The notes: generated by a model from the letters alone, not told the origin. Positions 999 through 64,000 are shown, counted from the stretch's first letter. The stretch is 64,000 nucleotides of DNA from an uncultured archaeon (GCA_938048735.1 CALIUM010000005.1:5525-69524), one strand, 5' to 3'. Translations and numbers: made by a program.

Positions 999-1076
999 TG
1001 GCGGGCCCGGTGGGATTCGAACCCACGACCTCAGACTTAGGAGGTCTGCGCCCTATCCTGGCTGGGCAACGGGCCC
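999..1076 (-). tRNA. tRNA-Arg (anticodon CCU), 3' CCA genomically encoded
   Basis: The reverse complement folds as a canonical cloverleaf: acceptor GGGCCCG/CGGGCCC, D-stem GCCC/GGGC, anticodon stem CAGAC/GUCUG with loop CUCCUAA, T-arm GUGGG-UUCGAAU-CCCAC, discriminator G followed by CCA. Confidence 0.85.
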
Positions 1077-1182: not shown

Positions 1183-1286
1183 GCGGGGGTTCCCGAGACT
1201 GGCCAAAGGGGCGAGACTTAAGATCCTGAGCTCGGGAAGAGATCTCGTGGCTTAGGCCTTCGTGGGTTCGAGTCCCACCCCCCGCA
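1183..1286 (+). tRNA. tRNA-Leu (anticodon UAA) with a ~19 nt intron after position 37
   Basis: Acceptor GCGGGGG/CCCCCGC, anticodon stem CGAGA/UCUCG, loop CUUAAG|intron|A, long variable arm UGGCUUAGGCCUUC (class II), T-arm GUGGG-UUCGAGU-CCCAC, discriminator A. The intron sits at the canonical archaeal 37/38 site. Confidence 0.8.
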
Positions 1287-2307: not shown

Positions 2308-2640
2308 GAGGAAACCTCCTCCCCCTTTTTCTTAGTTTAGGGTTCACGGCCTCCAATCTAGACTTGATTTAGCCAAACTGCCCAATTGTACCATCATCTA
2401 GTTTAGATGAAGGCCTCTAGGATTTAACACGTACTGGGAGATGAGGGCTGAATGATCTAAATATGAAAAACAGCTGTTTTGGAACAATAATCTGTTCATT
2501 TATTAATCAAGACTTTTATTCTTGGATATGTTTTAACTCCTAGATAGCTTCCTGTTGTAAACATTATTAAGTTCATTATAATAGCACCTATTGTGGGGTT
2601 CTCCGACCAAGGTAAGAATAGCGTGGTGGAGATGAGCCAT

Positions 2641-2889
2641 CTACCCAAGCCTATCTTCAACCCCTCTTTTACCTCTTGACATCCGGTCTTTAAAGAGATG
2701 ATCATGGTGGAGGTGAGCCCCCCCTAGGAAGAAGAAACCAAACTGTAGGATAGATAAGATGAACTGGAAATGAACAGGCGCCTCGTAGAACCTCAAATTG
2801 CTTGATAGTTGCAACCAGGCCCAGACGAATAAGGCTGCTATGAAGGAGCCAACAACAAGGTCGGTGAAATCAATTTGTCCGGAGTTCAA
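2641..2889 (-). CDS. small hydrophobic membrane protein (hypothetical; possibly a fragment)
   Basis: 82 aa ORF, predominantly hydrophobic. It lies in series with two further small membrane ORFs, so a frameshifted single gene cannot be excluded. Confidence 0.3.
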   Translation of the reverse strand: MNSGQIDFTDLVVGSFIAALFVWAWLQLSSNLRFYEAPVHFQFILSILQFGFFFLGGAHLHHDHLFKDRMSRGKRGVEDRLG

Positions 2890-2943
2890 ATCGCCGTTTC
2901 TCCCTGAATGGGGTATAAAAAAGGGGAGGGTTAAGGAGATCCT

Positions 2944-3216
2944 CTATTGGGGCGCTCTGGGTTCTCTCCTCATCCTGAGGTAGTCACTTAGTAAGAGGGT
3001 TGCAAGGATGACTATGGCTATGGAGGCGAAGGAGGGGGGATGGCTGAGGAGGTTTCGGGCTTGGCCTATCAGGAGGGCCATCCTAGTCATGACGGTGTCG
3101 CCGTAGGCAGCGCCGAAGCCTGCCATCATAGTATAACGGGCAATTATAGAGGTGTACTTGAGGGGCCCCCTATGCTCCAATGTGAAATAGAAGTATAGGA
3201 GAACCGTGAGGACCAT
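2944..3216 (-). CDS. small hydrophobic membrane protein (hypothetical)
   Basis: 90 aa ORF with 2-3 predicted TM segments, same strand and context as its neighbours. Confidence 0.3.
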   Translation of the reverse strand: MVLTVLLYFYFTLEHRGPLKYTSIIARYTMMAGFGAAYGDTVMTRMALLIGQARNLLSHPPSFASIAIVILATLLLSDYLRMRREPRAPQ

Positions 3217-3244
3217 TATTACGATCAGGATGTTATTGAATGTG

Positions 3245-3667
3245 TCAAGGGGGGGTCTTCGCCACGAGTGGTATGAATGTGGCCCTTATCTGATGGAGGA
3301 ACTGGGCGAAGACCATGGTCCTCAGAGATAGACCTATGTATGTGCCGACCGCTACGGATAATGGAATCCTATATAGCCAGAAATATTTCTTCGAGAACCT
3401 GAAGTACCATAGCAATCCCACTAGTAAGGCTAATGAGAATAGGATTATCTTGGTTGAGGTTAGAGACCATATTGTCCGCCATTGGCTGAGCAGCCAGTCG
3501 AGGTTGAAGCCGATCGTATAGGCCGTTGCGACACCGAGGTAAGTGGCCTCGGCGAACCTGAACCATGGGTTCTCCTTATATGTGAAGCTGAATATGCAGA
3601 GAAGGAAGAAGGCGGTGAACCAGGGACCCAGAGCCGTTATCACGCCGGCTATCCAATCCGTGACCAT
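3245..3667 (-). CDS. integral membrane protein (hypothetical, ~4 TM)
   Basis: 140 aa, strongly hydrophobic with aromatic-rich helices. No recognisable family. Confidence 0.45.
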   Translation of the reverse strand: MVTDWIAGVITALGPWFTAFFLLCIFSFTYKENPWFRFAEATYLGVATAYTIGFNLDWLLSQWRTIWSLTSTKIILFSLALLVGLLWYFRFSKKYFWLYRIPLSVAVGTYIGLSLRTMVFAQFLHQIRATFIPLVAKTPP

Positions 3668-3675
3668 AAATCCAC

Positions 3676-4533
3676 CTACCTTTTACCCTTAGCTCGGGTG
3701 AAAAAGTAGCCTAGGTTGCCTACGACCACGAAGAGGATGACCAAGATATGGGTCGTGGAGAGGGGATCCTGCTGGGCTAGGGCAACTCCTCTCCTCCCCA
3801 CGAGAAGCTCATACTCCGCGGCGCTTCTCAGCCCGGCTATGAAGGCCTTCACCTGACCTGCATTATAGTATGGCGCTACCTCAGGCACGGACACCCCGAG
3901 GGCCCCTAGGATATAGGGTATTCCGTAGGGGGCGATCCACTGCCTCACCCACTCAGGGTTTCCAGGAGTTCTACTTTGAATGCTTATAAGGAGGTCGAAG
4001 TCCTTGGCTCCACTAACCCCCTTCATGATCTCATACGTCTCCAAAGGTTTCTTGTTTATGTAATCCGCTGGGAAAGCCTTGTAGACATCGGATGCGAATT
4101 GAGCCATCCCCACCTCCCTCATCGGGTTGTAGCCCATGTGGATGTAGTCCCTCCCGTAGACCTTGCCATAATTCTTTTCAGGATTGAGGGCCCTGATATC
4201 ATCGGCTGCTATGTCTGAACCGGCCTCCCAGAAGGAGCAGATGTAGACCTTGACATCCTTCGAGAGCAGGTGGTGTAGGGTCGCGATCGTCATGGGGCCG
4301 AGCTCGTGTAATCCTGCGAAGCTGAGATCATAGCTTAGAATTACCTTACTGCCAGGTTTAAGGCCATCTATGACCTTGAAGTATTCCCTTGTTCCTGTCG
4401 AGATCGATATGGGGAGGCCTATCGGGCTGATCAGAGGCCACAGGATGACTATCCATAGGAGGAGGTATATGATCCGGGAGTCCACTTCCTGAAGTCTCTC
4501 CCACACACTTTTCTTCCCCGTTCCAGCCTGCAT
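3676..4533 (-). CDS. membrane-anchored protein with large extracytoplasmic domain (hypothetical)
   Basis: 285 aa with an N-terminal TM, a ~200 aa soluble domain and a C-terminal TM. It is operon-coupled to the neighbouring membrane ORFs. Confidence 0.5.
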   Translation of the reverse strand: MQAGTGKKSVWERLQEVDSRIIYLLLWIVILWPLISPIGLPISISTGTREYFKVIDGLKPGSKVILSYDLSFAGLHELGPMTIATLHHLLSKDVKVYICSFWEAGSDIAADDIRALNPEKNYGKVYGRDYIHMGYNPMREVGMAQFASDVYKAFPADYINKKPLETYEIMKGVSGAKDFDLLISIQSRTPGNPEWVRQWIAPYGIPYILGALGVSVPEVAPYYNAGQVKAFIAGLRSAAEYELLVGRRGVALAQQDPLSTTHILVILFVVVGNLGYFFTRAKGKR

Positions 4534-4583
4534 CCCCTACTCAACCTCCCCTCAAGTATCCCCTCTCTCTTCCTATGAGGGTT

Positions 4584-5195
4584 CTAGCCCCTAGGGCTAG
4601 GGCTCCGAGGGCTGCTCCAATGACGTTCGCTCTCATCGTCGACATGTTCGGAACGTCGAAGATCCATTTTCTTATCGGCGTGAAGCCTGGGCCATATCGC
4701 GGTCCCTATCGGTGCGTTGGCGAGCATGACTAGGGTTCCTGAGAGGAGCAGTACGCCGGCCTCGAGTGTTCTGGCCCTGAAGGCCCTGTAGGCGGCTGAG
4801 GCTATCCAGAACCCAAGGGATGCGTACATCGCCCCGCTCAGGGGGGTCAACACATAAAGCCTTATCGCTTCGAATAGCTTTGTCCCCTTCCCTAGGCCAA
4901 GTGCTGGGATGGGTATTCCAATCAAGGTGTACCCGATCATGGTTATCAGGATCCATGCACTCCAGTACCATCCCCTCCTCCTCTGGGATGCTATACGCCC
5001 ATGCAGCATCAGGAGGGTAGTGAAGCCTATGAAGAGGGCGAAGGTCTCCATCACGGCATCCCAGTCCACGAAGTCCTTTGCAGCTGACTCCCATGCTGGA
5101 ACCACCACGAAGTATGGGACCAGCTGGAAGAGGCAGAAGACAGCGGTCAGGATTATCGGGATCTCAACCCTCCTATACCACGCCATCTCGATCAC
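4584..5195 (-). CDS. integral membrane protein (hypothetical, ~5 TM)
   Basis: 203 aa hydrophobic ORF. Its start overlaps the stop of the upstream ORF by 4 nt (ATGA coupling). Confidence 0.5.
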   Translation of the reverse strand: MIEMAWYRRVEIPIILTAVFCLFQLVPYFVVVPAWESAAKDFVDWDAVMETFALFIGFTTLLMLHGRIASQRRRGWYWSAWILITMIGYTLIGIPIPALGLGKGTKLFEAIRLYVLTPLSGAMYASLGFWIASAAYRAFRARTLEAGVLLLSGTLVMLANAPIGTAIWPRLHADKKMDLRRSEHVDDESERHWSSPRSPSPRG

Positions 5196-5719
5196 CAGCT
5201 TAATATCTTCGTTAAGATATCCGAGCCTGCCGTGACGAATATGACCCCTAGGAGGATGAGTACGATGCCTAGGAGCTTCCCCATGTCTTGGCCCGCTAGG
5301 CTTCCGATCATCTCAGCATCCTTTGAGAGGTAGGCCCCAGCGCAGAAGATCTCCTCCCCTATTAGTGCATAGTCACAGGCTGCGACGAAGAAGGGGATCT
5401 GATGGATGTTGGCGGTCCCTCCAACCTGGATCGTTCCTATTCTAGCCCCAGTCTCGGCGAGCTGAAGGGACTCAGCCCAGTAGGCACCCACCATTATGTT
5501 GGCAGCCGCCCTCTCCCTCCACATCCAGCCCATATAGTTGGAGGAGAATCCGAACTGATCAGAGGAGAGGTATCTCACCTGTTCTGTTGGGTTGAAGTCT
5601 TCCGGGCGGCCGGCCTTTTTATATCCTGTCTCAGCGAGCTCGACTGCTATGGGCCATATGACCAGTTGCCTGACTGGGACATAGAGCCTCGTCCCAAGCT
5701 CCGCGCACTTCTCAGCCAC
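5192..5719 (-). CDS. hypothetical protein with soluble N-terminal domain and C-terminal TM helix
   Basis: 175 aa ORF. It is the first gene of a co-directional cluster located 212 bp downstream of cooC. Confidence 0.5.
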   Translation of the reverse strand: MAEKCAELGTRLYVPVRQLVIWPIAVELAETGYKKAGRPEDFNPTEQVRYLSSDQFGFSSNYMGWMWRERAAANIMVGAYWAESLQLAETGARIGTIQVGGTANIHQIPFFVAACDYALIGEEIFCAGAYLSKDAEMIGSLAGQDMGKLLGIVLILLGVIFVTAGSDILTKILSW

Positions 5720-5931
5720 ATAGCTCAGGACTCCAAGGCCCGCGATGGTCTGGGGGCCGTAGGTAGCACCTGCCAGACTGTAGTACAGCCATATTTCCCT
5801 TACCCAATATATAGAAGTTATTATAAATAAATAAAGCTTTTCTCTGGGTTGACCCTCTCAGGATTGAGGTTGAACGATGTCAGAAGAGTGGAAAAGATAG
5901 AATCATAAATTTCTATTTAAACAAATTATAT

Positions 5932-6729
5932 TCAGAATTTATAGCGTTCTTTTAGATACTCCTTGAGATTTGAGATTGATGCAATCGCTGGGGACCTGTC
6001 ATCTATGTCTAATGGTGATCTACCTTTGAGATCCGCCTCCACGACCACTGGGTCGTAGGGGATGTAGGCGGCTATTGGTATATCCGCCTCCCTCACGCTC
6101 TCCTCGATGAACCTCCTCTCATCATCGCTCCTAATCTTGTTCCCCACAGCGAGAACTTCCCTGATCTCAAGCTCGGAGGCCAGCCTCCTTATCCTTCTGA
6201 GGGTCTCTATGGACTTCATCCCAGGCTCGACTACGACGAGCATGGAGTCCATCCTCCGCGTCGTCCCTCTCCCAAGGTGCTCAAGCCCAGCCTCCATATC
6301 CATTATGACTATCTCCCTCCTCTGGATGAGGAGGTGCTGCATCAGAACCCTCAAGAGGGCGTAGGCTGGGCACATACAACCCTTATCCGCAGCCCTTACA
6401 GTCCCCATCACCAGCAGCTTCACACCGTCCGGGCCGACCACCCCGAACCTGTCAACTATGTCATTAACCGTTGGGGTCATCCTGAATATCACCCCATAAG
6501 ATGATCCGGGAGGGAACCCAGTCCTCTCCTCTATCAGTTTGGAGTTCTCCGACAGGGGGATGATCCCCTCCGCCTCCTCCCTGGGTATCCCTAGGCTTGA
6601 GGCGAGGTTGATGTTCGAATCCGCATCCACAGCTAGGACATTATACCCTTCCCTCGCCAGGAGCCTGGCTAGGGTCGCGGCTATGAAGGTCTTCCCAACT
6701 CCCCCCTTGCCTGCTACTGAGAGCTTCAA
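5932..6729 (-). CDS. cooC: CO dehydrogenase/ACS nickel-insertion ATPase (CooC/AcsF family)
   Basis: Deviant Walker A GKGGVGKT at the N-terminus and the CooC-specific metal-binding CMCP motif. It is the last gene of the cdh operon. Confidence 0.85.
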   Translation of the reverse strand: MKLSVAGKGGVGKTFIAATLARLLAREGYNVLAVDADSNINLASSLGIPREEAEGIIPLSENSKLIEERTGFPPGSSYGVIFRMTPTVNDIVDRFGVVGPDGVKLLVMGTVRAADKGCMCPAYALLRVLMQHLLIQRREIVIMDMEAGLEHLGRGTTRRMDSMLVVVEPGMKSIETLRRIRRLASELEIREVLAVGNKIRSDDERRFIEESVREADIPIAAYIPYDPVVVEADLKGRSPLDIDDRSPAIASISNLKEYLKERYKF

Positions 6730-41284: not shown

Positions 41285-41698
41285 ATGATGAGAAAAGGCA
41301 TGTCTAGAGCTAGAGCCAGAGACGAGGAGATCCTTCAGGTTCTTAAAGATATAAAGGCTTTACTGGAGCCCAAACCACCGCCTCCACCCCCTCCTCCACC
41401 CCCACCTCCCCCCAAGGGCCTTTGGAACGAGTTTCTGGACTTCGTATCAAAGTACAAGGTTATGGGAATGGCCGTGGCCTTCATCCTAGGCTTATATCTG
41501 GGCACCCTTGTACAGGCACTAGTTAATGACCTGATCATGCCTATAATAACGATAATTCTACCAGGTGTTGAATGGGAAGCATTTGTGCTGGGACCGTTCC
41601 GCATCGGGCACTTCATAGGAGCCTTAATAACCTTCCTACTGGTAGCCTTCGTGGTCTTCATGTTAGTCAAGATAACAAAAAAATGGGGGATCGAATAA
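41285..41698 (+). CDS. mscL: large-conductance mechanosensitive channel with polyproline N-terminal extension
   Basis: The S1/TM1/TM2 region (LWNEFLDFVSKYKVMGMAVAFILG...DLIMPII) aligns with MscL. It is preceded by a 44 aa extension that includes 13 consecutive prolines. Confidence 0.7.
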   Translation: MMRKGMSRARARDEEILQVLKDIKALLEPKPPPPPPPPPPPPPKGLWNEFLDFVSKYKVMGMAVAFILGLYLGTLVQALVNDLIMPIITIILPGVEWEAFVLGPFRIGHFIGALITFLLVAFVVFMLVKITKKWGIE

Positions 41699-42322
41699 CA
41701 TCCAAATTTATTTCAAATCATAATTTTGAAATCATGTTTAATGACTAGATTAGAATTGAAACGTTAGACTACAATAACACTTTTTGGAATATATTCTTAA
41801 GTTATTAGGCGATAATTTTAAGTTTTCATCTTATAATATGATTTATCTAGGAAAAAACTTGTTAGAAAAATGATTCAATTTCTTATTTCTAAAATTTAGT
41901 TCTGAATGGATTTGGACATTAATTTACTTTAATATAAATTCTAAAAGTTCTATTTTTATGATTTTGAGGAATTCTTCCATAATAATCCTAATGATTTTAC
42001 TATTTATTTGTTTTTTAATTTTTCTATTTATTGATGTGTAAGCATTATTATGAGTTTAGGGTAAAGACAAGTAATGTAAAGGTTTGGAATATTTGACAAT
42101 CATTCACCGCATCCCTCTAGCAACGGGGGGTGTAACTAAAGCTATTCTATAACCCCTCCTCCAGCGCCAACTATGCCCAAAAAGACCTTTGTCATTCCTC
42201 TAAAATAATTAGACTTATTAAAGGTTTGGGATATTTGAAGCGGAGGCCAAGACTCTTTATTCGAAAGGTTTAAATATAGCGGTTTCTGCCGATTCTGGAT
42301 TTGAAGAGGAGGATTAAAAATC

Positions 42323-42727
42323 ATGGAAAATGAAATGAAAAAGGAAGTTAAAATACTTGAAGACTGTATGAAAGTTGCTGAACATGAAAATCTTATTTGG
42401 GTTTGTGATGGAGCTGCAAACGTGGGTCAAGTGGGCCAGGCAATTGGTGTTTTGCTCTCAAACTTGGATAAGGGACGAATGTGTTGTACAGTAGCCGTAG
42501 CAGCTGGCTCTAAGCGTCATCTAGAGATAGCTGAAAAAGCGAAAAAGAACATAGTTATAAATGGGTGCGCAAATAGATGCGCTTCCAAAGTTTTAGAGAA
42601 TGCTGGAAAGAAAATAAACTATGAAATAATCATATCTAAGTATTTGCAAAAGGTTCCCACACTTGACATCTATATGGGTGACGCGAAGAAGATAGCCCAA
42701 ATAATAATTGAAGAAGCCAAGCTTTAA
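42323..42727 (+). CDS. DGC-domain putative zinc-binding protein
   Basis: 134 aa with conserved WVCDGAANVGQ and NGCANRCASK Cys/Gly motifs. The gene is AT-rich. Confidence 0.5.
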   Translation: MENEMKKEVKILEDCMKVAEHENLIWVCDGAANVGQVGQAIGVLLSNLDKGRMCCTVAVAAGSKRHLEIAEKAKKNIVINGCANRCASKVLENAGKKINYEIIISKYLQKVPTLDIYMGDAKKIAQIIIEEAKL

Positions 42728-43360
42728 GAATGAAAAAAGCAGGATACGTAAAGGCAGCTAATTTATAAAGTGCCCATATTTCTCTATTTTATATAAAGTG
42801 TGGTTCTGTTGACTGTTCTTATAACCCCTTACATAGCAAATAAAATACGATAATACGATAAATCTTTATTTCAGGTGAGTTTAGCTACTTCATGCTCTGT
42901 TGTAGGTGGGACTTTTTAGCAAAAGGTATCAAAGTTGATATTAATGGGACCACGAAACCCATGGCGGTTGTAAATTGGATGGTTATTCCCCATATATTGA
43001 ATAGTGTTACTAAAAAAGGAGATATAGACATTGTCTAAATCCCCCCTCTTTTCATAATTAGCAATCCAACAGCAGTTATAAATCACTGAACCTCCAACAC
43101 AAAGAAATCTTATTTATAGTCAGAATAATCACTGGAGCAACTTCCACATCCAAAAGACCACCTGTCATAATTGCTCTAAGGTATCCCAAGACAATTCTTC
43201 GCATATTTTTAAACTCATCTTCATCAATGTTCAGGGAATTCGTGCCCCCTAGTCTTAACATGAGAATTTAAACCTTCTTCCTAGATGAAAACCTAACTAA
43301 AAACTAAAAAGACAATAATTTGAGATTATTTAGGGAAAACCGCCAAAAAAGGCAATCTTG

Positions 43361-52495: not shown

Positions 52496-52658
52496 TTAGC
52501 CCACCTATTCAAGGCCAGCCAATAACTATTTAATGTTATCCAATCTTTCCTCCATAAATTAAGTATCATTTGAAGATGTCATCGTATAACTTGAAATAAT
52601 AATTAAGTCCAGAGTCTTGACACTCCCATGGCTTAAGCCTGTGGGATTCTCGGTTTTT

Positions 52659-52847
52659 CTAGGCATGACCTTTCATCATACCGAACTCGGGCTGTGTCAA
52701 ATCAGCCCCTGCTATGGACGTATAGCCCATAGCCCGCTTAAGGATGTTCAAGGCTCCGTTATAGTCCGCATGACATGAGTAGCCGCAGTTTAAGCATCTA
52801 AAGGAGCCTCCGACTCGAAGCCCCTCATACCCGCTGATCCTCGCCAT
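52659..52847 (-). pseudogene. C-terminal remnant of an IS200/IS605-family TnpB (OrfB) transposase-associated nuclease
   Basis: 62 aa with the TnpB zinc-finger/RuvC-III signature FRCLNCGYSCHADYNGALNIL. An in-frame stop lies immediately upstream and no N-terminal part is detectable. Confidence 0.5.
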
Positions 52848-53156
52848 TTTATCATAAACTCATGACTTTTGCTTAAGCATTTATTAGAAGACTGAGCTTG
52901 TAGCGATTAACAGGGAGGCCCTCTGGAGGGATCCACTCCTTGTTTAGAGGGTCAAGCCATAGATGCATACCTAAGCCTATGTCGTCAATGTTTTCGGGCT
53001 TAATCTTTATTTGGTTCGGGAATGTTTCCCCCGTTGTCGAACCCAGATTAAGTATATGGCTCGCAGATCCATACAAGTTACATTCCTTCAACTATTCATA
53101 TGTTATAACGAAAAGGTTATATATTAACATATATTAACATTTTTGGAGAAATAACA

Positions 53157-53435
53157 ATGTCTGATGATGATATTGCCTTAAAAGAGGCTGTGGAAGAGGC
53201 GTTACGTGGCGTTCTAGATCCCGAGCTTGGGGCTAGCTTGATGGATTTGGGGATGATCAAAAGTGTAACTGTTAAGGATGGTATCGCGACAATCGAGATG
53301 ATGTTGACAACACCCTTCTGCCCGCTAGCGATGCAATTAACATCCGATGTGATGAGGGCTGCTGAGGGAGTTAAAGGTATAGTGAGGGCGGAGGTCAAAA
53401 TCGTAGAGTTCGGCTTTTCTCCTTTTCAAAGATAG
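53157..53435 (+). CDS. DUF59/MIP18-family Fe-S cluster assembly protein (SufT-like)
   Basis: 92 aa. The motif DPELGxSLxDLGMI...TPFCP is characteristic of DUF59. Confidence 0.6.
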   Translation: MSDDDIALKEAVEEALRGVLDPELGASLMDLGMIKSVTVKDGIATIEMMLTTPFCPLAMQLTSDVMRAAEGVKGIVRAEVKIVEFGFSPFQR

Positions 53436-54207
53436 TATTGACGTTTCGGAAAATGCTGTTAGTTCCAGGAACGCGCGTTAAAAAAGGGGATCATCTGCAT
53501 GGAATGAAAGATGTACAAATAATATGTAACAGGTTAGAATTACAGAATAAAATTATTCTGGGTTTTGGTGTAGGGGATGGTAGTTCAAGTTTTCTTCTTC
53601 TTAACGGAAAAGGGGTCTTTTGATATCTCTTGATCATGATATAAAAATACCCTAAAAGGGTTGAAATGGGAAACGATACTAAAAGGTCATGCTAATTCAG
53701 AGGATGGAAGGTATTTCTTTCAAAAGAGATTCGTTGGATATGGTTTTTCCCAGATATTTTATGCATTGTGTTGTGGCTTATGTTAGATATTTTCAGGAGT
53801 TGGAGCGAGTCATCGATCCGGAAGCGGAAATCGTATTAATAGACCTTTGTCTTAATGGTAAAAGATTTTTGGACAAGGGTCATTTTGGCAAGACTTCATC
53901 CATATTGTGTTGTGGCATACTCCCAAGATATTAACTAATATATAAAATTAATTGGGATCGAAATTCGTCATTAAAGTCGTTTAAAGCTAAATACTATATC
54001 AAACCATAAGCTTAAGAGTTATATTCATAACAAATTGAAATTCATTATTAAAAGAAAATGTTAACATAATAAAAGGAAAAAGAAACTTCTATATTTTATA
54101 TATCAATCATTAAGATAAGTGAAGTAGAAAAGTCAAAATGAGAACAAGAAAGAGGTGTCACGAAACTGTCAAGTGTGATGCCAAAAGAACTTGCTCTCTA
54201 ACAAAGT

Positions 54208-59749: not shown

Positions 59750-60085
59750 CCCTCAGCCTCCTTAAAGCGAATCGGCGATATGCCACAACTTAATAAGCTT
59801 TATTTTCAGTTCAAGTGGGCCTCCCAGTAGATTTTGTTGTTGGAATTTAACCTTAGATATAAATTTATTTGTTTTTTCTTCGTAAAATTACTTAATTAAT
59901 GTCTTTTTAGTTGACCTCCAACCTTTTGGAGGGTGTCCCAACACCCCATAAAAGCCTCTTTTTCAAACCCTTTCGATCAATAGTTCCGTCTCCGAAGAGG
60001 CATAAATGAACCAAACCCTTTTTCAAACTTCACCTCTATAGAATGATTGCTGATCGATTTGGGCGAGGCCTCCACTTCCAAGGTG

Positions 60086-63000
60086 ATGGAAAGGATCCAA
60101 CTGTGGAAGCAGAGGCTCATCGACCTGAGCATGCGGAACCGCCTGATCTATTTCACCCCCGCAAAGAGCTCCTATATTGGTATATCGACTCCAGACATGA
60201 AGACCATCTTCGAGAGGCTAGTTGTCAAGGGGAAGGGGTGGGAGATCTGGCAGCCTCCAAGGGATGGATGGATGAATGCTTCAAGGTCTACGCGTCCTGG
60301 GAGGAGCCAGCTCGTGCCCCAAACAGATGATCCTCAACTGGTTGAGCGGACCCTGAGGAGCCTCTATAGACGCTCCACATCAGAGTACAGAGAGAGAGGT
60401 GTTAGAATCCTCTACATGACCTTTGGAATGCTCAACTGGAGGGAGGCCGGGTCAGGGGAGGCGATAAGGTCCCCGATACTTCTAGTTCCAATAGAGTTGA
60501 GGAGGGATAACCCCCGCTCACCCTACAGGGTAGAGGTTCCTCCCGTGGAGGAGGAGGTGGTCCTGAATCCTGCCTTAACCCTCAAGCTGAGGTATGATTA
60601 TAAGTTCGAGCTCCCACCCCTCCCGGACTTCGAGGAGGTAGATGTTCTCAGCTACCTCCAAGAGGTTTCAGCCTCCTGTGGGGAGCTGGGGTGGAAGGTG
60701 GAGGGGGAGGTGGGGATCGGGCTCTTCTCCTTTTACAAGTTGGTGATGTACCAAGACCTCTCCGAGAATGCCGATGAGATAGCTAAGAACCCGATCATAT
60801 CAGCTCTAGCTGGGATGCCGAACCCGAAGCTGATAAAGGGCCCTCTCCCTAGGGAGGATGAACTCGACGAGATACTTGAGCCGAAGAAGATGTTCCAAGT
60901 TCTCGACGCCGACAGCAGCCAGCAGCTCTGCATCCAGTATGCTTTGAGGGGCCAGTCCTTCGTCATCCATGGCCCACCAGGCACGGGGAAGAGCCAGACG
61001 ATAGCCAACATCATATCCGAGTTTATAGCCGCTGGGAGGAGTGTCCTATTCGTAAGCGAGAAGATGGCTGCCCTAGAGGTGGTCTACAACAGGCTGAAGG
61101 AGAGGGGGCTGGATGACTTCTGCCTCGAGCTCCACAGCCACAAGGCGAACAAGAGGGAGGTGGTCGCGGAACTTAACAGAGCACTGAACGAGCACCTGAA
61201 GCCAAGGGCTAGGCTATCCGAAGAGGAGCTGGATAGGCTGAAGGAGAGGAGGGACCTCCTCAACAGCTATGTGAAGGCCCTGCATATGGAGAGACCACCC
61301 TTAGGGCTCTCAGCCTTCGAGCTGCTCGGGAGGCTCGCCAAGCTTGAGGATGCTCCATTCATCCCGTCGGAGTATCAGGGACTCAAATCCCTCACCCCCC
61401 AGAAGCTCCAAGAACTGGAGAAATTGGTAAGAGACCTCTCAAATGTGTGGTACATCGCATTAGAGGGGAGGTTTCCATGGAGGGGGTGCAGGGAGGAGGC
61501 CTTCACCTCTGAATCCCGCTCCAGGTGGGCAACCCTACTCAGGCAGCTCCTCGAGGCCTTGGAGGAGCTGGAGGCCATCAGAGGCTACAGCGAGATGCTG
61601 GGCCTAGGTGTCCCGAGAACTCTTGGGGAGCTTGAGAGGTTGAGGGAGATCTCCATCCTGGTTTCGAGCTCCCCTAGGCCCCCAAGAAGATGGCTTGAGG
61701 GGGGAGGGCTGAAAGGGATAGAGGAGGAGGCCCTGAAAAGGCTTGAGGGCTACTCAGAGTATTGGAGGTCTAGGGATAAGCTGATGAAGCTATACAGCCC
61801 AAGCATATTCAGGCTTCCAAGGGGGGTCGCGGATGAGGCTGAGAGGAGATGGGCGAGGGTAAAGGAGTTATTATCTCAGAACACTGATGACGACGTAGAC
61901 CTCCCAAGGCTTAGAGAAGAGTTGGCCCCCTATGTGGAGGCCTTGCCCAGATCGATGGAGGAGTGGAAAACCCAAGCAGCTGAGATAGCCGGCATATTCG
62001 GCCTACAGGTGAAGATCGACTCGATAGAGAAGATAGCCAGAATGGCTGAGCTTGCGAGCCTCTGCGAGGCTAAAAATAGGCCGGAGGCGGAGTGGCTCGA
62101 CATAGAAGGCCTGAAAGAGGCGACGAAGACGATCAGGGAGGCTGAGGGGTTATACCTTCGCAGGGATGGCCTGAAAAAGGATCTGCTGGAGAGATATCAT
62201 GATGATTTTCTAAACCTAGATCCAAAACCCATAATAGATTGGCTCGAGGGGCCGGGCAGCTCCCCATTCAGATACCTTAGACCTCAGTACCACCGGATCA
62301 GGGGGCTCCTCACAAGGATGAGCAGAAGACGGGAGCCTCTGAACAGGATTTTAGAGGATCTAAAGGCCGTTGAGGAGTTGAGAACTCTTGAGGATGAGAT
62401 AGCCTCCCGTCGAGAGGACCTCAGGAGGGTAATGAAGTCATATTACAGGGATCCCACCCCCGACTTCAACTCCGCTGGGGAGGCCCTGAAGAACGCCTGG
62501 AAAGCCCTAAAGATAACGGGGGGAAGGCGGATCCCCCTAGGGGTGGCCCTCAACCTCGCAGCTGGAAGTAGACCCTCAGAGGAGCTTCTACTCACCGGGA
62601 GGAGGCTCAGAGCCGCCCTGAACGAGTGGAGGCTGAGAACCCTAAAGCTGAGGGGCCTCCTCCCATATGGGAAGCTTCCGAATACGGGTAAGCCTCTTAC
62701 AAAGAGCCCCCTTGACATGGTGGCGGAATGGTCATCTGAGCTGGCTAGAAGGTTCTCCTTCCTGGATGAGGTATGCGCCCCAGCATTATCATCGAGGTTC
62801 TCGGATCACCCCCATTCCCTAGCGGAGCTCATCTCCGACTTGAGGGAGGTGGAGGCCCTCCAAGCCTTTGAGGAAGCTGTTGAGGCAGAGTCTGAGGAGG
62901 TTAAAGCTATCTTTGGTAGGCGATATACCGGCATAACGACGGATTGGTCCGCTATACTTGGGGATATAGATTGGTGTAAGAGGCTTCTAAGCATCCTAAA

Positions 63001-64000
63001 GGAGCCCCCACAACCCCTCATAGCCTACATCTCGGATGGAGGGTTCCCTCCTCCCCCCGATCCTGAGATAGGCCCAAGGCTGGAGAGGCTCTACGGCCTG
63101 ATGAAAACCCTTGAAGACGGCTTCACTCAACCCCTATGGGGTAAGGATAGAGGGACCCTAACCCTTGAGGAGATCAGGGGGAAGGTCTCGGAGCTGCGCT
63201 CCAGGCTTGATGAGCTCCAATCCTGGGTTGACTTCAAGAGGATCACGGCGGATCTAGAGGGGAAAGGGCTCGGAGAATTCCTGAGGAGGCTATTAGAACT
63301 CAAGCCCGAGGCCTCGAGGCTGCTGGATGTGTTCCATAAGTCTATTTACAGCGGCCTCATAGACCTCATCTTCCAAGAGGAGCCTATCTTAGGAAGCTTC
63401 AGGGGGCAGAGGCATGAGCAGCTGATAAGGGAGTTTCAGGAGCTGGACCAGAGGTTCATCGCCCTCTCAGCCTCCCGCGTCATAGAGAGGGCAAATGAGC
63501 AGAAGCCTCAGGGGGTCTTCCTACAGGTCCCGGACTCCGAGATAGCCATCCTGAGGAGGGAGGCCCTCAAGAAGAGCCGGCACATGCCCATCCGAAACCT
63601 CTTCGAGAGGATCCCGACCCTCCTCAAGAGGCTTAAACCCTGCCTCCTCATGAGCCCCATCTCGGTGAGCCAGTTCCTCTCTCCAAAGCTCCGCTTCGAC
63701 CTGGTGATCTTCGATGAGGCCTCCCAGATATGCACAGAGGACGCTGTGGGAGCCATCTATAGGGGGGATCAGCTGATCGTGGCCGGTGACAACAAGCAGC
63801 TCCCCCCAACCCCATTCTTCCAGTACTCTTTGGATGAGGATTTCGACTGGGATGAGACATTCGATTACGAGCTCGATGTCTTCGAGAGCGTCCTAGATGA
63901 GTGCCTATCCATAGGGTTGCCCGTGAATATGTTAAGATGGCATTATAGAAGCAGGCATGACTCCCTGATAAACTTCTCAAACGAGAGGTTCTACGAGAGA
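60086..64000 (+). CDS. DUF4011 / Upf1-like superfamily-1 helicase, very large (≥1305 aa; 3' end outside window)
   Basis: Open frame from ATG 60086 to the window end with no stop. N-terminal DUF4011-like LIDLSMRNRLIYF, Walker A GPPGTGKSQT (~61.0 kb), Walker B VIFDEASQI (~63.7 kb), and WHYRSRHDSLINFSN near the end. The six-frame track lists only a short out-of-frame ORF here. Confidence 0.8.
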   Translation, partial: MERIQLWKQRLIDLSMRNRLIYFTPAKSSYIGISTPDMKTIFERLVVKGKGWEIWQPPRDGWMNASRSTRPGRSQLVPQTDDPQLVERTLRSLYRRSTSEYRERGVRILYMTFGMLNWREAGSGEAIRSPILLVPIELRRDNPRSPYRVEVPPVEEEVVLNPALTLKLRYDYKFELPPLPDFEEVDVLSYLQEVSASCGELGWKVEGEVGIGLFSFYKLVMYQDLSENADEIAKNPIISALAGMPNPKLIKGPLPREDELDEILEPKKMFQVLDADSSQQLCIQYALRGQSFVIHGPPGTGKSQTIANIISEFIAAGRSVLFVSEKMAALEVVYNRLKERGLDDFCLELHSHKANKREVVAELNRALNEHLKPRARLSEEELDRLKERRDLLNSYVKALHMERPPLGLSAFELLGRLAKLEDAPFIPSEYQGLKSLTPQKLQELEKLVRDLSNVWYIALEGRFPWRGCREEAFTSESRSRWATLLRQLLEALEELEAIRGYSEMLGLGVPRTLGELERLREISILVSSSPRPPRRWLEGGGLKGIEEEALKRLEGYSEYWRSRDKLMKLYSPSIFRLPRGVADEAERRWARVKELLSQNTDDDVDLPRLREELAPYVEALPRSMEEWKTQAAEIAGIFGLQVKIDSIEKIARMAELASLCEAKNRPEAEWLDIEGLKEATKTIREAEGLYLRRDGLKKDLLERYHDDFLNLDPKPIIDWLEGPGSSPFRYLRPQYHRIRGLLTRMSRRREPLNRILEDLKAVEELRTLEDEIASRREDLRRVMKSYYRDPTPDFNSAGEALKNAWKALKITGGRRIPLGVALNLAAGSRPSEELLLTGRRLRAALNEWRLRTLKLRGLLPYGKLPNTGKPLTKSPLDMVAEWSSELARRFSFLDEVCAPALSSRFSDHPHSLAELISDLREVEALQAFEEAVEAESEEVKAIFGRRYTGITTDWSAILGDIDWCKRLLSILKEPPQPLIAYISDGGFPPPPDPEIGPRLERLYGLMKTLEDGFTQPLWGKDRGTLTLEEIRGKVSELRSRLDELQSWVDFKRITADLEGKGLGEFLRRLLELKPEASRLLDVFHKSIYSGLIDLIFQEEPILGSFRGQRHEQLIREFQELDQRFIALSASRVIERANEQKPQGVFLQVPDSEIAILRREALKKSRHMPIRNLFERIPTLLKRLKPCLLMSPISVSQFLSPKLRFDLVIFDEASQICTEDAVGAIYRGDQLIVAGDNKQLPPTPFFQYSLDEDFDWDETFDYELDVFESVLDECLSIGLPVNMLRWHYRSRHDSLINFSNERFYER

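Follow-up and report, generated by a model that had tools for sequence, protein, structure and literature searches.

In a stretch of 64,000 nucleotides (nt) from an uncultured archaeon (GCA_938048735.1 CALIUM010000005.1:5525-69524; hereafter the window, at its full length), the membrane-protein genes that follow the cdhABCDE-cooC operon on the minus strand are probably a lately inactivated copy of a conserved, autonomous operon (window 2496-5842), here called the cassette. In its intact form the cassette comprises four genes (g1 to g4), in some genomes with a fifth (g5), and its first gene belongs to the Pfam family DUF6754 (PF20539). An earlier note on this DNA had read the region as six separate genes, none of them in a recognisable family, and had suggested a possible functional link to the acetyl-CoA decarbonylase/synthase (ACDS) system encoded upstream. 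Instead of six hypothetical proteins, the region is here annotated as a single operon, in which one gene is intact and four are pseudogenes.

The six co-directional open reading frames (ORFs) themselves were confirmed on the minus strand at 5192-5719 (175 amino acids, aa; ORF1), 4584-5195 (203 aa), 3676-4533 (285 aa), 3245-3667 (140 aa), 2944-3216 (90 aa) and 2641-2889 (82 aa); they follow cooC (5932-6729, 265 aa, CbiA/ParA-type P-loop) after a gap of 212 bp that contains no ORFs, and their description as an uncharacterised cluster of membrane-protein genes is upheld. Homologs of the 285-aa ORF, 29 in number and derived from Bathyarchaeia and Thermoprotei, lie on contigs that share a common cassette, consisting of a DUF6754 gene (~262 aa), genes for proteins of ~216 aa, ~285 aa and ~232-239 aa, and at times a subsequent gene for 124-140 aa. 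The cassette proteins of four such loci (L001, L003, L005 and L007) match the window by tblastn in the order g1 to g5; these matches and nucleotide alignment to intact relatives show five genes, partly broken, under the six ORFs. The 140-aa and 90-aa ORFs form one gene, in agreement with part of the earlier suggestion that the three smallest ORFs could be a single frameshifted gene; the 82-aa ORF belongs to a different gene, of which it makes up the first half. ORF1 does have a recognisable family, since it matches DUF6754 with 205.6 bits against a cutoff of 27 (E 9.4e-61), above the gathering threshold, and the locus is a degenerate member of this catalogued, uncharacterised family. The real extent of the cassette is ~2496-5792 and not 2641-5719, as noted earlier, and the true spacer between cooC and g1 measures ~140 bp.

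Compared by nucleotide alignment with two intact reference relatives, L006 (Bathyarchaeota metagenome-assembled genome [MAG] GCA_018396515.1, g3 94% identical) and L007 (g3 87% identical), the window carries one deletion and three +1 insertions of its own. An internal segment of 188 bp that is present in both relatives has been deleted from g1 at 5769|5768, corresponding to codons 9-70 and 2 nt of codon 71; read from its original ATG (5792), the gene now runs into a stop after 26 codons, and its remnant holds the 175-aa ORF with a GTG at 5719. The missing segment was first suspected because the DUF6754 match was partial: ORF1 covers only positions 87-256 of the 257 profile positions, and positions 1-86 are gone through the deletion, in agreement with tblastn similarity that starts at residue ~68-72 of the intact protein. 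Lost with this segment are the N-terminal transmembrane (TM) helix and the first part of a cytoplasmic alpha/beta domain, including several residues that are invariant in the g1 alignment (A1); the window thus encodes no full-length DUF6754 protein with TM segments at both ends, the form found in intact relatives (261-267 aa). The soluble N-terminal domain with a C-terminal TM segment that had been ascribed to ORF1 is an artefact of the deletion. By comparison, the large extracytoplasmic domain with two TM anchors that had been recognised in one of the proteins holds for the 285-aa product of g3.

The three insertions are frameshifts in g2, g4 and g5. In g2, an additional C near 4691 (CCC instead of the CC of the relatives; tblastn frame change near 4690-4705) puts the last ~50 residues out of frame, among them the conserved C-terminus ...ERGYLRGG. 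The insertion in g4 is located near 3255 within seven consecutive C residues (plus strand: G7, 3249-3255; tblastn frame change near 3251), and that in g5 near 2724 within seven consecutive G residues (plus strand: C7, 2718-2724; tblastn frame change near 2722); both homopolymer runs are missing from the relatives at these positions. The second part of g5 is a 69-aa ORF at 2496-2705 that was absent from the earlier ORF list. Removal of one base per gene restores a g2 product of 214 aa that ends in ERGYLRGG, a g4 product of 240 aa that is colinear with its family, and a g5 product of 130 aa. Only g3 is left intact, and therefore the locus cannot make the complex. An antisense ORF of 142 aa (window 5402-5830, plus strand) crosses the g1 remnant and the promoter region and is most likely spurious.

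Table 1. Features of the cassette locus, in window coordinates.
Feature	Position	Strand	Basis and remarks
BRE/TATA-like box	5828..5842	-	spacer alignment of window, L006, L007, L009
g1 original ATG and first 8 codons, MAVLQSGR	5769..5792	-	ends at deletion junction 5769|5768
g1 (DUF6754) remnant	5192..5768	-	Pfam and tblastn; ~residues 72-262 of intact 262 aa
g2 polytopic subunit, ~5-6 TM	4541..5186	-	tblastn, alignment; +1 C at about 4691
g3, intact, 285 aa	3676..4533	-	homologs, AlphaFold model
g4 polytopic subunit, split 140 aa + 90 aa	2944..3667	-	tblastn, alignment; +1 in C7 run
g5 small accessory membrane protein, split 82 aa + 69 aa	2496..2889	-	tblastn, alignment; +1 in G7 run

Recent pseudogenisation is the likely origin of these lesions. 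A separate Logan assembly of ERR9287632 (L008) matches the window with 100% identity across 5,401 bp, all four lesions included, and this reproducibility accompanies frames that are disrupted relative to those of close orthologs. The window contains 15 G/C runs of at least 7 nt; the 13 runs outside the cassette (7-8 nt) all fall within uninterrupted ORFs, including cdhA and cdhE, and since they cause no frameshift, real and recent decay is likelier than error. The lesions are crowded into 3.3 kb, whereas no damage is seen in the cdh, cooC and cofE-like genes that flank them over ~9 kb: cdhE (470 aa), cdhD (402 aa), cdhC (464 aa), cdhB and cdhA (788 aa) upstream are intact, and these genes, cooC and the downstream CofE/F420-ligase-like gene (280 aa, 1465-2307) have ortholog-like lengths.

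Several observations weigh against decay. Two of the three frameshifts affect homopolymers of 7 nt, where sequencing errors classically arise, and the window and L008 may stem from the same reads, in which case the two assemblies would not be independent. After correction of the frames, and with both outgroups (L007 and L009) required to agree, the damaged genes show 14 amino-acid changes specific to the window and 13 specific to L006; in the absence of an excess of window-specific changes there is no signature of relaxed selection. A relative-rate excess of 41 vs. 17 (p = 1e-4), calculated from raw tblastn pieces, was an artefact of misframed residues and disappeared after frame correction. 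Given the missing substitution excess, the lesions would have to be either very recent or not real. The latter alternative, sequencing or assembly artefacts in an organism that carries an intact and functional five-gene cassette, is rather improbable. It would account for the homopolymer frameshifts and for the third insertion in a CCC run, for the fact that g2, g4 and g5 are each one base removed from an intact gene, and for the even substitution counts, and it would suit a sequence that comes from a metagenome assembly; yet the same sequence was assembled in L008 over 5.4 kb, the thirteen other runs of 7-8 nt leave long ORFs unshifted, the lesions cluster next to undamaged flanks, and a clean internal deletion of 188 bp is not a type of base-calling error. 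Expression of the split genes by programmed or transcriptional slippage, or reversible phase variation at these tracts, is highly unlikely: although the insertions in g4 and g5 fall within C7 and G7 tracts with no counterpart at these sites in relatives, each frame could be restored by a 1-nt slip, and the coding sequence is otherwise well preserved, slippage cannot mend the 188-bp deletion with its loss of the g1 N-terminal TM helix and many invariant residues, the g2 site is merely CCC, and the intact relatives need no such mechanism. As a separate observation, the CofE/F420-ligase-like gene of L006 (4228-5070) is split (182 + 88 aa) and has accumulated 19 lineage-specific amino-acid changes, compared to 4 in the window; this copy appears to be decaying or poorly assembled.

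A scan of GTDB species representatives with the DUF6754 alignment returned 50 loci; together with those found earlier, the operon to which the pseudogenes belong was traced through 54 distinct loci. The order g1-g2-g3-g4 is kept in all 54, and the window conforms to this co-linear order; DUF6754, catalogued in Pfam without a described function or obligatory g2-g3-g4 partners, never stands alone but heads a membrane module of four genes that is strictly conserved. The module is widespread among anaerobic archaea and bacteria; its carriers include Bathyarchaeia, Culexarchaeia, Methanomethylicia, 'Nitrososphaerota', Bacillota and other bacteria, and the intact proteins measure ~262 aa (g1), ~215 aa (g2), ~286 aa (g3), ~239 aa (g4; ~235 aa) and ~124-140 aa (g5); the latter gene was found only in the clade of the window, in L001 and in L050. 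Some loci carry the cassette twice, either in tandem (L001, 8547-15272; L016; L021) or as inverted, divergent pairs (L036, 10001-20421; L047, 2015-8596; L052, 6612-13031); the paired paralogous cassettes of many Bathyarchaeia point to diversification of the kind seen in substrate-specific transporter paralogs.

The family is large, and g1 is highly conserved. g1 has more than 4,162 matches in a database clustered at 90% identity; in an alignment of 34 sequences its mean column identity is 68%, and dozens of polar residues are invariant. With the g3 profile, 5,327 representative clusters (50% identity) were recovered, including 1,568 with E <= 1e-30, and the window g3 is 94% identical to KEJ49_01495 of a Bathyarchaeota MAG. 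The family consensus sequences derived from the g2 (A3) and g4 (A4) alignments both abound in conserved polar residues. No Pfam or NCBIfam family matched g2, g3, g4 or g5, PDB profile searches with g1 to g4 recovered no relative (nothing below E 0.1), the PADLOC models of anti-phage defence did not match any of g1 to g5, and literature searches for DUF6754 or PF20539 found no paper in the library that could be searched.

According to structure model, hydropathy and charge bias, g1 consists of a TM segment, a cytoplasmic alpha/beta domain of ~200 aa and a second TM segment, and g3 of an N-terminal TM segment, an extracytoplasmic Rossmann-like alpha/beta domain of ~225 aa and a C-terminal TM segment with a basic tail; by charge bias, the g1 domain faces the cytoplasm and the g3 domain the exterior. 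Hydropathy indicates about 5-6 TM segments in g2 and about 4-6 in g4. The AlphaFold model of g3 has a predicted local distance difference test (pLDDT) score of 87.4; both soluble domains adopt generic Rossmann-like folds, and fold searches with g3 return only generic matches. The external position of the g3 domain is supported by a homolog of 838 aa (P0204) with an inserted CARDB surface domain, in the form of repeated CARDB-like immunoglobulin (Ig) modules within the g3 domain; in another homolog of 630 aa (P0187) the whole domain is duplicated in internal tandem. The external domain of g3 thus tolerates large insertions. Bacterial g1 proteins carry an N-terminal extension of ~150-180 aa that starts with a hydrophobic segment.

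Other relationships were considered and rejected. The long g3 homologs are not Rosetta-stone fusions, as they represent insertions (CARDB), an internal duplication and a tail extension, with no known enzyme or transporter fused to g3. Distant paralogy was tried for g1 and g3 and for g2 and g4, which share a similar order of secondary-structure elements within each pair, but hhalign probabilities amounted to 3% and 0.6%, respectively.

Gene context is the sole functional clue, and it hints weakly at an importer for peptide or amide substrates. An amide-bond hydrolase is encoded within 5 kb at 29 of the 54 loci, often 70-250 bp downstream on the same strand; these hydrolases belong to Amidohydro_1/3 (19 loci), S-Me-THD (7 loci) and PxpBC-like proteins (6 loci), and include a hydantoinase A/B in L006. 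Recurrent neighbours in general are amidohydrolases, D-aminopeptidase, GlmL-like proteins and pyridoxal-phosphate (PLP) enzymes of amino-acid catabolism; a GlmL-like gene occurs at nine further loci, in Bathyarchaeia and Bacillota alike. In the Bacillota locus L054, the cassette lies between an M55 D-aminopeptidase with DUF4438 on one side and a GlmL-like gene on the other, with an enzyme of the D-cysteine-desulfhydrase family nearby; in L056, it is surrounded by three large Amidohydro_3 genes and an M81 peptidase. A class-III aminotransferase gene stands directly upstream of g1 in L005 and L059, with M55, PALP and beta-lactamase-family genes in the vicinity; the L005 aminotransferase overlaps the start of g1 and was identified as L-lysine 6-transaminase (654 bits vs. 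a cutoff of 520.8).

Some neighbourhoods deserve description in their own right. The GlmL-like protein of ~630 aa is encoded beside the cassette in L047 (9338-12369), L050 (4378-7373), L036 (6734-9743) and L053-L055 (~4200-6300); it matches Pfam MutL (PF13941) and remains below the NCBIfam cutoffs for GlmL and Or-4, and in the archaeal loci its gene is followed by that of a ~376-aa protein without a family match. In six loci from Culexarchaeia, Methanomethylicia and relatives (L003, 4658-12654; L014, L029, L031, L035, L043), the cassette sits between other conserved genes, with genes for a PxpB/C-like fusion, a small biotin carrier and an OadA/PycB-like carboxyltransferase upstream, and S-Me-THD (DUF917) downstream. 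The idea that the cassette supplies the membrane portion of a Na+-translocating decarboxylase was rejected, since OadA-like and biotin-carrier genes occur upstream at 6 loci and are restricted to this clade (Culexarchaeia, Methanomethylicia and relatives); likewise, a role related to tungstate or to aldehyde ferredoxin oxidoreductase (AOR) was discarded, as AOR genes within 5 kb occur at 17 loci of related Bathyarchaeia only.

It is possible, if far from certain, that the four proteins constitute one membrane complex that imports peptides or amide-type nitrogenous substrates, perhaps D-amino-acid peptides or N-acyl amino acids; a single stoichiometric complex is assumed because the gene order is tight and invariant. 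In such a complex, the external domain of g3, tethered to the membrane, would bind the substrate, the path across the membrane would be built from g2 and g4, and g1 would act on the cytoplasmic side in coupling or regulation; imported substrate would then pass to the amidohydrolases, peptidases and PLP enzymes that are often encoded beside the cassette. The wider proposal, a new class of ATPase-less four-subunit solute importer common to anaerobic archaea and bacteria that scavenges D-amino-acid peptides, N-acyl amino acids or cyclic amides from necromass, is more doubtful still; it would unite the g3 binding domain, two polytopic subunits unrelated to each other and the highly conserved g1 domain. 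Two points count against an importer. g2, g3 and g4 gave no consistent Pfam or NCBIfam match to curated transporter families (ABC, TRAP, TTT, MFS, ECF and others) and no solved transporter in PDB profile searches, and the neighbour tallies are raw counts inflated by common ancestry among Bathyarchaeia; many of the associations are not independent because they are common to related members of this group.

A membrane-anchored enzyme, a sensor or an envelope-biogenesis complex, with g1 as its catalytic or signalling domain, is an equally open and comparably tentative explanation for the intact cassette. The cytoplasmic domain of g1 is unusually conserved, and its column identity and invariant polar residues are what would be expected of an active site; one locus is embedded among glycosyltransferase and sugar-nucleotide genes; and g1 shows weak recurring matches to the eIF-2B/MtnA family. 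On the other hand, the latter hidden Markov model (HMM) matches (E 0.004-0.02) are far below cutoffs and g1 aligns to the IF-2B genes found near bacterial cassettes with an hhalign probability of 0.1%, so that an eIF-2B/MtnA-like identity of g1 was rejected; fold and sequence matches are otherwise generic or non-significant. The dinucleotide-binding motif G-x-G-x-x-G is absent from all 34 g1 sequences, and in g3 it is sporadic and not positionally conserved. The context is mostly one of soluble catabolic enzymes in need of an imported substrate, and the presence of several paralogous cassettes per genome resembles transporter families.

A functional link to ACDS, through C1 metabolism or metal supply, had been proposed from the position of the cluster behind cooC, and conserved linkage to cdh genes across genomes had been named as the touchstone; the neighbourhoods of the 54 loci did not show it. 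cdh/cooC adjoins the cassette in the window and in its closest relatives only (L006/L010, L007 and L009; 3 of 54 loci), where the same-strand arrangement directly behind cooC is kept; at the other 51 loci neither cdh nor cooC was found within ±10 kb, as far as flanking sequence was available. Short 'cdhA' matches at other loci are 162-bp stretches only, taken as ferredoxin-type Fe-S motifs. In the next closest cassette (L001, g3 72% identical), the genes lie between TBP genes and an amidohydrolase, and more distant orthologous cassettes have unrelated gene contexts. In addition, a BRE/TATA-like box, GAAAAGCTTTATTTA, precedes the original start codon of g1 by about 35-50 nt; a block GAAAAGyTTTATTTA is kept in the cooC-g1 spacer of the window, L006, L007 and L009, while the rest of the spacer has diverged. 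The box suggests that the cassette has its own putative promoter and would form a separate transcription unit. Adjacency limited to near relatives and this promoter-like box therefore do not support a functional link. A membrane complex coupled to ACDS, be it for C1 energy coupling or for Ni/Fe supply to cluster assembly alongside CooC, is very improbable in view of these findings, of the amino-acid-catabolic contexts in which the cassette also occurs in Bacillota and other bacteria, of the lack of similarity to metal transporters or Cdh subunits, and of the present genome, in which intact cdhA-E and cooC genes stand beside a broken cassette. We infer that the position of the cassette behind cooC is a lineage-specific accident of gene order, and that the cassette is not part of the ACDS system.

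The analysis removes a tempting but wrong annotation, that of an ACDS-associated membrane complex, and makes DUF6754 the lead gene of a large cross-domain membrane module of four genes whose three partners are without a family model. Bathyarchaeia, Methanomethylicia, Culexarchaeia and some Bacillota, in which the module is common, are presumed to feed on detrital protein and the remains of cell walls; if the importer proposal is true, a dedicated uptake system would bear on carbon and nitrogen turnover in anoxic sediments, and the window would record a lineage in the act of losing it.

Elsewhere in the window, a 104-nt Rfam tRNA match (1183-1286, plus strand; 40.5 bits) that was not called by ARAGORN adjoins tRNA-Arg(CCT) at 999-1076 (minus strand) and may be an intron-containing archaeal tRNA. 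Three regions (41300-43300, 52600-54000 and 60000-64000) contain only short ORFs of 60-135 aa, according to a crude greedy ORF call, and no Rfam match at gathering level.

Compared with known systems, the cassette appears from its sequences to fall outside the known transporter, KTN/RCK and eIF-2B families as well as the ACDS system. Within DUF6754, intact relatives and bacterial homologs match the profile from end to end, in contrast to the partial match of the window g1. In the window and its three near relatives the cassette lies next to the cdhABCDE-cooC operon and on the same strand; it differs from that operon in having no homology to Cdh or CooC proteins, no linkage at the other 51 loci, and a promoter-like element of its own. 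The KTN/RCK (TrkA-N) domains and MTH0777 (PDB 1kjn) show 6-11% identity to the cassette domains, with scores typical of any small Rossmann-like fold, and unlike KTN domains the g3 domain is extracytoplasmic. The nearest functional analogy, in architecture only, is provided by the TRAP (DctPQM) and TTT (TctABC) systems, binding-protein-dependent secondary transporters that consist of multiple subunits without an ATPase gene, have an alpha/beta binding component outside the cytoplasm together with two unequal membrane subunits, and often occur as several paralogous sets per genome beside catabolic genes. No sequence or profile similarity to the cassette was found; their binding protein is two-lobed and either soluble or lipid-anchored, whereas g3 is a single-lobe domain on two TM helices, and nothing in TRAP or TTT systems corresponds to the additional cytoplasmic subunit, g1. 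Finally, the dpp operon of Bacillus subtilis combines the D-aminopeptidase gene dppA with a dipeptide ABC transporter. The cassette proteins are unrelated to ABC components and a comparable arrangement is seen at few loci; yet in L054 the cassette closely follows the M55 D-aminopeptidase gene and so holds the position of the transporter in dpp.

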